A stretch of 64,000 nt of DNA from a virus. Taxonomy: Duplodnaviria > Caudoviricetes. Of the stretch, positions 31,180 through 62,095 are shown piece by piece. The stretch's first letter is position 1. Each line of letters opens with the position of its first letter. Made by a program: the position numbers and the translations under genes. A model generated the notes under the pieces. It was not told the DNA's origin. It did not search any database and saw only the letters and a program-made list of their open reading frames with translations. Where the stretch lies: IMG/VR virus record IMGVR_UViG_3300024493_000235, positions 128,001 to 192,000 of that record; one strand, 5' to 3'.

Positions 31180-31420
31180 TATATATAATACATTAAGTTA
31201 CTATAACTAAAGTAACTATCTAGTTACTTAACTAAAATAACTAACAACGTAGATAACTTACGATCAAGATTCTAGATTTAATATTTAGTTATATAAATAT
31301 AATTTAGTTACTCTAACTATTTTTTAACTTAGTTATTTTATAGAGATCTCGAAAATTTTTAAATTTTACTTTTTTTGAAAAAATTTTGGAAATTTTAAAA
31401 TGTTTTAAAGATCGTTGCTC
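31180..31420. other. Putative replication origin / protein-binding repeat array
   Basis: ORF-free and extremely AT-rich. About a dozen TAACT/AGTTA units in both orientations at 31196-31335, followed by AAATTTT tracts. Lies at a divergent gene junction. Confidence 0.45.
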
Positions 31421-59637: not shown

Positions 59638-59721
59638 TCAATCTTTTTTTTAAGTATACATAATATACATACAATGAAATGGAGAAGTCAAAGACTATTG
59701 TGAAAAGACATAGGAGGGAAA

Positions 59722-60909
59722 ATGAACACAATTACAATCGGAATCGGAGCCGCAGGATCTGCCATTGCTGAAGTCGCAGTCCGTTTAGGATTTGGGCAAG
59801 CAATGGCTATGAATTCAAGTTCCGAAGATTTAGACGCCGTAAAATTAATCGATCCGGCAAGACGAATTAAACTGCGCACACTAGATGGCGCAGCGAAAAA
59901 CAGAAACTCAGCATTAGCTGCGTTCAAAACCGAATACCAAAACTTTTTGACCAATGTAAACAACGCCTTTAACGCTACAGGTACCATAGTAGTTCCTGAT
60001 CTTATTTTCGTTGTCGCCTCTGGTGGAGGCGGGACAGGCTCAGGTATTCTTCCTGTGGCCAGCAGAATATTGCGAAAAACATATCCTGACAGCTTTGTAA
60101 TTCCTGTCATTGTTCTTCCGTCCCTTTATGAGAGGGGAATTGCGCAGCAAAATGCGATTGACTGTCTGCGCGAACTCGGCCCGACACAGGATGAAAAGAA
60201 AGATCCTTCATGGAAGGATTTTACAATCATTCTGGCCGATAACACACGAGAACAAACCGACTTGTTGGAAAAGAAGTATGAACTTATAAATTCCAACATA
60301 GTTGGCAACATACAAAGACTCGTCTCAACCACAAAAACTTCCCGTATTTCAAATATGGATATTGCCGACAGAAAAGCTATGTTCTCAGACCCTGGAATCA
60401 TGGTAATAGGAAGCGCGACTGTAAAGAACGATGAGGAATCTCCGATACGCGCCGCGATAAAAAGAGCGATAGAAGCTACGGCAATGTCCGCAGATATAAC
60501 CGCCAGTGTAAAGCGCGTTGCAATTCAAGTTGAAGCCTCAACAAGCCTCTATACCGAGAAAAACATCGTCGACGCTCAAAGCATGTTTAAAAATGCCGCA
60601 GGTGTCTTCGAAGGCTATTACGGTTTGGATGAACCGGCAGTCGCTACAGAAGGAAAGACAGGCGACGGTAAAGTGCTTGTAGCATTCTCCGGCGCAAGAC
60701 TTCCTGAAAAGGTGATAAGGGAACGTGAAGCAATCATTGAAGATACATTCAAAGTTCCTACAGAAAGTGCCGTCGAAATTGCCAAAGGAAACAAAGATCT
60801 TAAATCGGCTTGGAGTTCTTCGACAAAATCGACTCCGGCAGCGGCGACAGAACCTGCCGCACAAAACTTTGACGATATCTTTGCGGGTATTGAAGGAGAA
60901 AGGACTTAA
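59722..60909 (+). CDS. phuZ: Tubulin/FtsZ-family GTPase (PhuZ/TubZ-like, 395 aa)
   Basis: IGIGAAGS, DGAAKN, signature GGGGTGSG, T7 loop NMDIAD, flexible tail ending NFDDIFAGI. TATACATAAT at 59655-59664. Confidence 0.9.
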   Translation: MNTITIGIGAAGSAIAEVAVRLGFGQAMAMNSSSEDLDAVKLIDPARRIKLRTLDGAAKNRNSALAAFKTEYQNFLTNVNNAFNATGTIVVPDLIFVVASGGGGTGSGILPVASRILRKTYPDSFVIPVIVLPSLYERGIAQQNAIDCLRELGPTQDEKKDPSWKDFTIILADNTREQTDLLEKKYELINSNIVGNIQRLVSTTKTSRISNMDIADRKAMFSDPGIMVIGSATVKNDEESPIRAAIKRAIEATAMSADITASVKRVAIQVEASTSLYTEKNIVDAQSMFKNAAGVFEGYYGLDEPAVATEGKTGDGKVLVAFSGARLPEKVIREREAIIEDTFKVPTESAVEIAKGNKDLKSAWSSSTKSTPAAATEPAAQNFDDIFAGIEGERT

Positions 60910-60918
60910 TAGAAATTC

Positions 60919-60960
60919 CTTAAGTGTGGGACGCAAAATCCCACACTTAAGTTTTTATTT
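60919..60960 (+). terminator. Terminator-like hairpin after the tubulin gene
   Basis: CTTAAGTGTGGGA-cgcaaaa-TCCCACACTTAAG plus T-tract. Confidence 0.8.
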
Positions 60961-61390
60961 ATCATTACGTCAATGGATACATTAGGGTCTAGTTTTATCA
61001 CGCTAGTGGTAAAGCGCCTCCTTTCAGCGTCCGTTTGCACCGATATACCACTCGGTGTACATATTAGAAATGCGCTATTAGCCATGGATGTATTTCTAGT
61101 AATGACGCAAAAAGACATGCGGATTGTATGTCGCTTCTATACATACGGTTCTTACTCGATCGTATAACGAATTCGATTTTCTGTCAAGCCGCAAACCGGA
61201 AATTCGTCTTCGTACCCATGATCTTAATGTATCCATTGATCTAATGATAAACATACAAAAGTTAATGGATTGACCAAAATGGTCGCGCTATTTGGTTAAG
61301 AATAGCTGTAGTAATTTTTGTGTGTTATCTTGGGTCCGCGTAAATCTTCCTTTACGTAAGCGCTATTACGGCGCTTACGTTTATTTTTTT
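60958..61390 (+). ncRNA. Candidate large structured non-coding RNA (~430 nt)
   Basis: 32-nt arms 60958-60989 and 61220-61251 pair at 31 of 32 positions, including 3 G-U. Many internal G-U-containing stems. A second 15-bp stem at 61250-61264/61312-61326. Terminator at 61354-61390. Confidence 0.7.
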
Positions 61391-61405
61391 AATCGGGGGG
61401 GGGTT

Positions 61406-62095
61406 ATGAAAAACGATAACCTACATGACTTGTCGACCTTCATGGACTGGTGGTCTGATAAGTGTGCGAAACCTTTCTCTATTCCGTTTCACATACAGCC
61501 TGATACTGTAAATCGTTTTATAGAGAAATATAAGTACGCAAATCTTGTATATGAAAGTTATACAGATGATGAGGATCACAGCACACCAAATTTTATGGCG
61601 CTTTTTTATTCTCCGTACTATCCTGTGTATACTTTACATCGAAAGTTTAAAATTCACACCATTCAGGATCATGAGGAATATGGCGGTAAATATACTGTGA
61701 CATTCAAGCATATCTTCTCAGAAGAGGAATTTCAGAAATGTAAATACTACAAAGAAGATACGCGTGAAAGAAAAAATCACATTGAAGTTGTGGAATATCC
61801 GCAAGAGAGACTTAAGGAAAAGGACAGCCTTTTGTCTATATCTCCGTATATTTTCGCATACGATTTCTTGAACTTAAAGGAACCTACAGATATAGCTTTA
61901 TCTTTACAGTTCTTGAAAAATCGGCATAACATATTGCAATCCTTACGTGTTTTATACATACAAAATGAAGAATCTTACACAGAAATTCTTAAAGCTTCTG
62001 GTTTTTCTATTGTCGATTGTGTACCGAATGTCGCATATCCTTTGTGTATGGACAACATTTGGGCTTATGATTTGGGTGCTTCAACATCTACATAA
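61406..62095 (+). CDS. Hypothetical protein (start reassigned to MKNDNL)
   Basis: ATG 61406 after a G9 tract. The upstream TTG extension in the ORF track runs through the RNA structure and terminator. Confidence 0.75.
   Translation: MKNDNLHDLSTFMDWWSDKCAKPFSIPFHIQPDTVNRFIEKYKYANLVYESYTDDEDHSTPNFMALFYSPYYPVYTLHRKFKIHTIQDHEEYGGKYTVTFKHIFSEEEFQKCKYYKEDTRERKNHIEVVEYPQERLKEKDSLLSISPYIFAYDFLNLKEPTDIALSLQFLKNRHNILQSLRVLYIQNEESYTEILKASGFSIVDCVPNVAYPLCMDNIWAYDLGASTST

Follow-up and report, generated by a model that had tools for sequence, protein, structure and literature searches.

Bacterial ribonuclease III (RNase III) cuts double-stranded RNA (dsRNA) once the helix extends over about two turns, and both the leader-trailer stalks of rRNA and sites in the early mRNA of phage T7 are processed by it. 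RNase III sites are known in the T7 early mRNA (R0.3-R1.3) and in the early transcripts of Bacillus phage SP82, and the small stable RNAs of the phage T4 type are co-transcribed and then matured by processing. Here we analyze a stretch of 64,000 nucleotides (nt), hereafter the window, which comprises bases 128001 to 192000 of the 268-kb IMG/VR virus record IMGVR_UViG_3300024493_000235, the 91%-complete genome of an uncultured giant phage whose DNA is present in a termite-gut metagenome. Directly downstream of a tubulin gene, the window carries an element (60958-61390) that folds as a plus-strand RNA, is closed by a stem of 32 base pairs (bp), and ends in a terminator of its own. We estimate a probability of roughly 0.5 that the element is a lineage-specific RNA cassette, transcribed by read-through from the early promoter of the tubulin gene and released or stabilized by host RNase III at the closing stem. 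Large phages appear to hold many uncatalogued structured RNAs, almost none of which has a known function, and this one is an unusually clean case, in which a stalk of 32 bp carries a core of six hairpins, with a second domain and a dedicated terminator after it.

Structure of the element

The gap between the tubulin gene and the next gene spans 496 bp (60910-61405). The open reading frames (ORFs) within it are just 38 to 70 amino acids (aa) long, are preceded by no Shine-Dalgarno sequence, and have no Pfam or PHROG matches, in line with an earlier sequence-only reading of this DNA that had seen no credible ORF there. The structural features of the gap are listed below; MFE denotes the minimum free energy fold.

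60919-60957, plus strand: intrinsic terminator T1, a stem of 13 to 14 bp with 6 G-C pairs and a TTTTTATTTA tail, abutting the 5' arm of P1 (terminator prediction and sequence)
60958-60989, plus strand: 5' arm of the closing stem P1, TTTATCATTACGTCAATGGATACATTAGGGTC (inverted repeat and MFE; mean pair probability 0.95)
60992-61015, plus strand: hairpin H1, 10 bp with a GCUA tetraloop (MFE fold)
61016-61026, plus strand: single strand GCCUCCUUUCA, 11 nt, anti-Shine-Dalgarno-like (mean unpaired probability 0.86)
61027-61108, plus strand: three-way junction in which GCGUC/GACGC closes H2 (61036-61059) and H3 (61062-61101) (MFE fold)
61114-61132, plus strand: hairpin H4, GACAUGC/GUAUGUC, 7 bp (MFE fold)
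61143-61165, plus strand: hairpin H5, AUACGGUU/GAUCGUAU (MFE fold)
61167-61213, plus strand: two-tier hairpin H6, ACGAA..UUCGU, with a 13-nt loop (MFE fold)
61220-61251, plus strand: 3' arm of P1, GATCTTAATGTATCCATTGATCTAATGATAAA (inverted repeat and MFE fold)
61250-61326, plus strand: domain 2, a 15-bp stem around two hairpins (fold, z = -4.8)
61341-61353, plus strand: second exposed pyrimidine tract, UAAAUCUUCCUUU (unpaired probability 0.80)
61354-61390, plus strand: intrinsic terminator T2, 11 bp with 6 G-C pairs and a T-run, the end of the cassette (terminator prediction)

The two arms of P1 form the longest long-range inverted repeat of the window and enclose six hairpins (H1 to H6). The sequence-only reading had the arms pairing at 31 of 32 positions with three G-U pairs that work on the plus strand alone, and the sequence confirms this: there are 28 Watson-Crick pairs, 3 G-U pairs, and one C-C mismatch, and the G of each G-U pair is always on the 5' arm, which leaves A-C mismatches on the minus strand. 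All of the interior helices that it had listed are present in the plus-strand MFE fold, although GACAUGC/GUAUGUC has 7 bp and not 8. The second domain that it had described is likewise there, with all 15 pairs of its stem intact, as is the terminator that follows; the second exposed tract, which can also be given as AUCUUCCUUU, precedes T2, and the T2 hairpin (61354-61380) lies 14 nt upstream of a G-rich ribosome-binding site. T1, a strong terminator that the sequence-only reading had not mentioned, separates the stop codon of the tubulin gene from the 5' arm, its hairpin (60919-60951) followed by a T-run, so that the element is flanked by two intrinsic terminators. Because no linker separates them, domain 2 is possibly stacked coaxially on P1 in the modeled fold.

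Folded with RNA parameters, 60950-61400 has an MFE of -159.3 kcal/mol on the plus strand (z = -9.6) and of -118.2 kcal/mol on the minus strand (z = -4.7). The interior (60990-61219) reaches -70.1 kcal/mol on the plus strand (z = -4.5) and -51.1 kcal/mol on the minus strand (z = +0.5) with the same parameters; with DNA parameters, the two strands are equal and unremarkable, at -29.1 (z = -1.7) and -28.4 (z = -1.1), respectively. G-U pairs account for 20 of the 142 MFE pairs and become A-C mismatches on the opposite strand. The fold is thus specific both to the plus strand and to RNA parameters, and we therefore agree with the earlier view that selection has acted here on RNA and not on DNA. The one-sided G-U substitutions suggest purifying selection on RNA pairing. 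The structure is confirmed, and its signal is that of a plus-strand RNA.

Short motifs recur within the structure. GCGCTATT(A/T) is present three times, at the apex of H3 (61072-61080), in a hairpin of domain 2 (61285-61293), and in the arm and loop of T2 (61360-61368), and GACGCAAAA is found in the T1 loop and again at the three-way junction; these recurrences are statistically only marginal and may be protein-binding or switching motifs. The loop and 3' arm of H1, GCUAGUGGUA (61002-61011), are complementary to the H2 loop UACCACU (61046-61052) over 7 perfect pairs and to the H3 apex CUAUUAGC (61075-61082) over 8 pairs, 2 of them G-U. By their sequence, these complementarities suggest alternative or tertiary pairings near the anti-Shine-Dalgarno-like tract.

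The tubulin slot in related phages

The tubulin has ten relatives among 5.8 billion proteins, at 38 to 61% aa identity (alignment A2). We read the gene layout of nine relatives (P0006 and P0007 being left out), from DNA for eight of them and from coordinates only for P0009. In nine of nine, the gene coordinates place 80 to 165 bp between the tubulin and the next called gene, and the element is absent. Synteny is kept: a neighboring 500-aa gene shares 37% identity with the corresponding gene of relative L004, and the N terminus of the 229-aa gene that follows the element is homologous to the ~210-aa gene after the tubulin in the same relative. The short spacers of the nine relatives, taken with this synteny, thus mark the block of ~435 nt as an insertion or a lineage-specific gain of an RNA and its terminator.

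The intergenic regions of four relatives (L004, L005, L006, and L008) were aligned. That of L005 holds a clear terminator and then a ribosome-binding site. That of L004 holds a terminator, a tRNA-Cys(GCA) (L004:5217-5290) that follows directly after the T-run without a promoter, and then a ribosome-binding site, which is the same layout as in the window with another RNA gene in place. The presence of tRNA-Cys in this slot therefore marks it as one in which the phage group keeps RNA genes matured from read-through transcripts, and it is the best indirect argument that the element is an RNA gene. The single tRNA of the genome studied here, also Cys(GCA), lies ~56 kb off between two protein genes (L062:14881-14954).

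The element itself is single copy in its genome and has no blastn match in 50,697 phage records. Searches of IMG/VR with the tubulin and the 229-aa protein by tblastn, and with patterns built for the locus, returned only relatives at no more than 28% identity, and the corresponding locus search in GTDB genome contigs returned only matches at no more than 26%. DNA pattern scans for the arms, for the arms with a gap, and for the loop plus the anti-Shine-Dalgarno-like tract found no second copy in IMG/VR or in the JGI metagenome collection; a degenerate 20-mer gave 11 metagenome matches, all due to chance, with no partner arm beside them and no resemblance in the surrounding sequence. In 575 kb of DNA from the same genome and the relatives, a covariance model of H1 and the three-way junction hit nothing other than its own source sequence.

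Known RNA families and gene content of the genome

The sequence-only reading had recognized no known RNA family, and our searches agree. Rfam 15 gives no match at gathering score in the window (tmRNA, RNase P, SRP, 6S, group I and II introns, GOLLD, ROOL, riboswitches, and T-box included) and just two chance matches at E <= 10, both on the minus strand over T1, while ARAGORN finds neither tRNA nor tmRNA in the window. Across the rest of the genome, nothing reaches the Rfam gathering score except one tRNA. The element is a member of no described family, and a search of the literature on noncoding RNAs (ncRNAs) of jumbo phages and on termite-gut jumbo phages found nothing relevant.

No reverse transcriptase was found by a PF00078 search of the whole 268-kb genome (91% complete), no serine or tyrosine recombinase was found in the same 91%-complete sequence, and the genome has no match to TnpB, to Ro/TROVE (the Y-RNA idea), or to RNA ligase (the circularization idea). 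Readings of the element as a retron, a phage-encoded inverton, an omega-RNA, or a Y-RNA module therefore fall, the last two being ruled out by the lack of TnpB and of a Ro/TROVE protein in the genome, respectively.

Transcription and proposed processing

The features that frame the element on either side are as follows.

59655-59664, plus strand: early-type promoter motif TATACATAAT of the tubulin gene (position weight matrix [PWM] score of 29.9 bits, rank 2 in the genome)
59722-60909, plus strand: tubulin/FtsZ-family gene, 395 aa (Pfam Tubulin 4.4e-12, Tubulin_2 1e-9)
61395-62095, plus strand: ribosome-binding tract of nine G residues (G9) and the downstream 229-aa gene, with its ATG at 61406 (sequence and ORF list)

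The genome has early promoters of the AR9 type, and their motif, TATA[CT]AT[ACGT]AT, occurs 93 times in it, mostly 10 to 25 nt before ribosome-binding sites and with conserved flanks; with the PWM that we built from 66 genome sites, real sites score above 20 bits. The tubulin promoter at 59655 is the presumed source of transcription for the element, and no promoter belongs to the downstream 229-aa gene itself. That the element, too, lacks a promoter, as claimed from the sequence alone, held up: the only sequence resembling the early motif, TATTTATCAT at 60956, scores -9.2 bits and was discarded as a promoter, and 60900-61400 has neither the late motif AACA-N6-TA nor a plus-strand sigma-70-like site. 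Of the hallmarks of an independent small-RNA gene, the element has its own terminator (T2), and no early, late, or sigma-70-type promoter was found, a promoter of an unknown class staying conceivable. In the absence of such a promoter, transcription would have to come through T1.

Elsewhere in the window, the early motif is seen, for example, at 31180, 31567, and 23859, as well as at 59655. Its extended consensus has YAA at -16 to -14, a T-rich segment at -7 to -4, R-A-G at -3 to -1, and (G/A)TA 4 nt downstream, and transcription likely starts 7 nt past the motif. The early promoter consensus of AR9 is AAATATATATTAT-N6-G (PMC5312081). On the minus strand, within the element, there is a sigma-70-like TTGACA-17-TACGAT (61187-61159; 10 of 12) that points antisense toward the 3' end of the tubulin gene; taken together, promoter-like matches in this region are about as frequent as chance predicts.

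Contigs identical to the phage are present in two termite-gut metatranscriptome libraries (one study, two samples). One of them (60767-60996) runs from the 3' end of the tubulin gene across T1 and 39 nt beyond it, into the stem, and a second (60985-61161) lies inside the core at a depth of 13.3, the tubulin pieces of the same run having depths of 3 to 17. Neither library has a contig over 61178-62600 or 59000-59335, and this was not used as evidence. The contigs over the element are supportive but weak. For the suggestion that the element is made by read-through from the tubulin gene, the contig that bridges T1 is what would be required, and the strength of T1 makes read-through a less comfortable source.

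From these data, we infer the following course of events. An RNA-plus-terminator cassette would have entered the short stretch that separates the tubulin terminator from the ribosome-binding site of the following gene. Polymerase would initiate at the very strong early tubulin promoter (59655), a fraction of polymerases would pass T1, and the flanks of the element would then pair into the 32-bp helix. P1 offers 29 to 31 paired positions formed from the flanks, where an RNase III stalk takes ~20 bp or more of near-uninterrupted dsRNA; as some two turns of dsRNA are enough for the enzyme, RNase III of any bacterium would be expected to cut it, and the enzyme here would be that of the host. Cleavage would free three products: a tubulin mRNA with a hairpin at its 3' end, a core of ~250 nt with the six hairpins clamped by the residual stem, and a 3' RNA of ~140 nt consisting of domain 2 and T2.

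Several points weigh against this account. T1 looks strong, and in AR9 termination is strong at predicted terminators (PMC5312081), so read-through would be limited. The RNA contigs are assembled and unstranded and come from one study, so that they convey no strand, ends, or true level, and DNA carry-over is possible. No RNase III gene was found in the phage genome. Against a background of 1000 native windows sampled from the same genome and corrected for guanine-cytosine (GC) content, the interior ranks in the top 1.5% for stability and in the top 2.3% for strand difference, which is notable and not extreme; it is the 32-bp and 15-bp stems that make the element exceptional. Finally, the element is a single example for which no homologue was found, so there is no covariation by which to validate it, and the element could conceivably be a recent functionless insertion.

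An exposed anti-Shine-Dalgarno-like tract

Within the single strand GCCUCCUUUCA, which adjoins H1 on its 3' side, lies the 9-mer CCUCCUUUC, corresponding to the 3' tail of 16S rRNA of the Firmicute type. The complement, AAAGGAGG, is found at 19 places in the genome, 11 of them real ribosome-binding sites, and the 61016-61026 site has no ORF behind it. The tract was observed after the fact, with ~0.016 such sites estimated by chance in the region. The exposed CCUCCUUUC is the only functional lead that we have: as modeled, it could pair with Shine-Dalgarno regions in trans, and the two pyrimidine tracts could also pair in cis with the G9 site of the next gene. If the tract is functional, it would point to translation being controlled by RNA early in infection.

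A bolder proposal, which we hold to be very unlikely, is that the excised core acts in trans as a mimic of the 16S rRNA 3' end, H1 and its exposed CCUCCUUUC tail being arranged in a manner reminiscent of helix 45 and the anti-Shine-Dalgarno tail. Were this true, an early RNA would sequester the Shine-Dalgarno regions of host mRNA or, alternatively, serve as a decoy to host factors or nucleases whose target is the 16S 3' end, and either would represent a new kind of RNA-based host-takeover or counter-defense device. As for antisense action on the phage itself, exact complementarity of at least 12 nt elsewhere in the genome yields 22 matches, four of them of at least 13 nt, versus a chance estimate of ~3.5, so that no target can be inferred.

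Alternative explanations

The position of T2 directly upstream of a ribosome-binding site and start codon raises the prospect of a cis-regulatory leader for the 229-aa gene, in which the RNA would sense a signal or factor and set termination at T2, or the pyrimidine tracts would mask the ribosome-binding site. A gene without its own promoter does depend on transcription through the element, the tracts 61016-61026 and 61341-61353 could pair with G9, and a weak competing hairpin of 6 bp (CGUAAA/UUUACG) overlaps 3 nt of T2. We nevertheless regard a leader as unlikely, since no Rfam riboswitch, T-box, or leader matches, no convincing antiterminator competing with T2 was found, and the homologous gene in the same position in the relatives is expressed without any such leader. 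Attenuators, moreover, do not typically have a closing stem of 32 bp or a second domain that is self-contained.

Recent or decaying foreign sequence, such as a dead mobile RNA gene or intron fragment whose hairpins are kept by history, would equally be limited to one example in one genome, be absent from the relatives examined, leave a covariance model with nothing further to find in the 575 kb searched, and have an interior merely in the top 1.5% of native windows for stability. Against a remnant without function stand the intact stems, with 31 of 32 pairs in P1 and 15 of 15 in domain 2, the substitutions confined to G-U on one strand, and the cover by RNA-library contigs; apart from this element, moreover, the spacers of such large phages are very short (80 to 165 bp at this locus). 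We judge this explanation, too, to be doubtful.

Quite unlikely is an element that acts as DNA, be it a miniature inverted-repeat transposable element (MITE), an inverton bounded by inverted repeats of 32 bp, or a site near the tubulin gene that serves replication or segregation. Terminal inverted repeats of 32 bp around 230 bp, found in this phage only, do resemble an insertion; the minus-strand sigma-70-like sequence at 61187-61159 would face the downstream gene after inversion; and tubulin-based partition systems (TubZRC) use a nearby DNA site. Yet a mobile element is hard to reconcile with a single copy in the genome, with arms that have no further copy in IMG/VR or the JGI metagenomes, with flanks (TTTTTA and CATACA) that show no target-site duplication, and with the lack of a serine or tyrosine recombinase, TnpB, or reverse transcriptase in the 91%-complete genome. 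T2 would stop an inverted promoter, and the DNA contig shows the reference orientation only, with no inversion joints, though contigs can hide a minor form. The direct repeats of the region (9 to 13 nt in 2 to 3 copies) are at about chance level and form no centromere-like iteron array. Against every DNA-level variant stand the three transition mismatches in the arms, each of which is a G-U pair when read on the plus strand, and the interior, whose fold reaches significance solely as plus-strand RNA.

The retron analogy drawn in the sequence-only reading, in which the 32-nt arms resemble the a1/a2 repeats of an msr/msd template RNA, a feature insufficient by itself, is effectively refuted, for the genome holds no reverse transcriptase, the downstream 229-aa protein has neither reverse transcriptase motifs nor a Pfam match, and no Rfam retron family matches; only a reverse transcriptase in the missing ~9% or one of the host could revive it.

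Neighboring genes and a second structured RNA

Within the phage database, the tubulin is nearest to those of Bacillus phage G and Clostridium phage c-st, at 29% identity (tblastn), and it is closer to these than to PhuZ of the phiKZ-like phages, the PHROG PhuZ match reaching only 9.4e-4; it is therefore not a close PhuZ. The conserved 500-aa neighbor has no tblastn match in the 50,697 phage records, and the 229-aa protein has no PHROG match. The nine-G run (61395-61403) is the sole ribosome-binding sequence of the 229-aa gene and is possibly slippage prone or a point of assembly uncertainty. The GC profile of the region shows no GC island.

A second candidate for a structured RNA is found elsewhere in the genome, on the minus strand (L061:8600-9103; G000:C1:218600-219103). 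It has the early promoter TATATATCAT in front (PWM score of 29.4 bits, rank 5 in the genome) and comprises ~300 nt closed by a stem of ~15 bp, followed by more hairpins and a strong terminator. At -189 kcal/mol (z = -4.8), its fold is the most structured of 1000 sampled genome windows. It has no Rfam match even at E = 5 and no evident similarity to the tubulin-linked RNA.

Comparison with known systems

The clean anatomy of the element, the tRNA slot of the relative, and the strong early promoter together make the locus a tractable test case for how ncRNAs of AR9-like giant phages are produced and processed. Set beside described systems, it shares with rRNA leader-trailer helices and with the intervening sequences of 23S rRNA the pairing of the flanks of a structured RNA over more than two turns, which enables excision, and, as in RNase III stalks, G-U pairs and a single mismatch are tolerated. 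It departs from the rRNA stalks in that the cargo is an orphan RNA of 230 nt, that it sits in the 3' region of a phage mRNA behind a terminator, and that cleavage is a prediction here. The sites of T7 and SP82 offer a parallel of another kind: these stems lie between the cistrons of early phage transcripts, where they divide one message from the next and leave hairpins that protect the ends. Those are simple hairpins of 20 to 30 bp with an internal loop, however, whereas the stem described here has six hairpins within it and a second domain and a dedicated terminator behind it.

Retron msr/msd RNAs also have terminal inverted repeats around a structured RNA, but no reverse transcriptase accompanies the element in its genome. 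Like GOLLD and ROOL, which are often found beside tRNAs, it is a multi-helix phage RNA of several hundred nt; unlike them, it is smaller, and there is no Rfam match even at E = 10. It resembles T4 species 1 and 2 as a structured ncRNA in a tRNA-type slot of a large phage, the relative having tRNA-Cys there, and differs from small stable RNAs of the T4 type in being single copy, in having no adjoining tRNA in its own genome, and in its much larger size (~294 plus 77 nt). By analogy, the element appears most akin to the RNase III stalks around rRNA and to the small stable RNAs of phage tRNA clusters.

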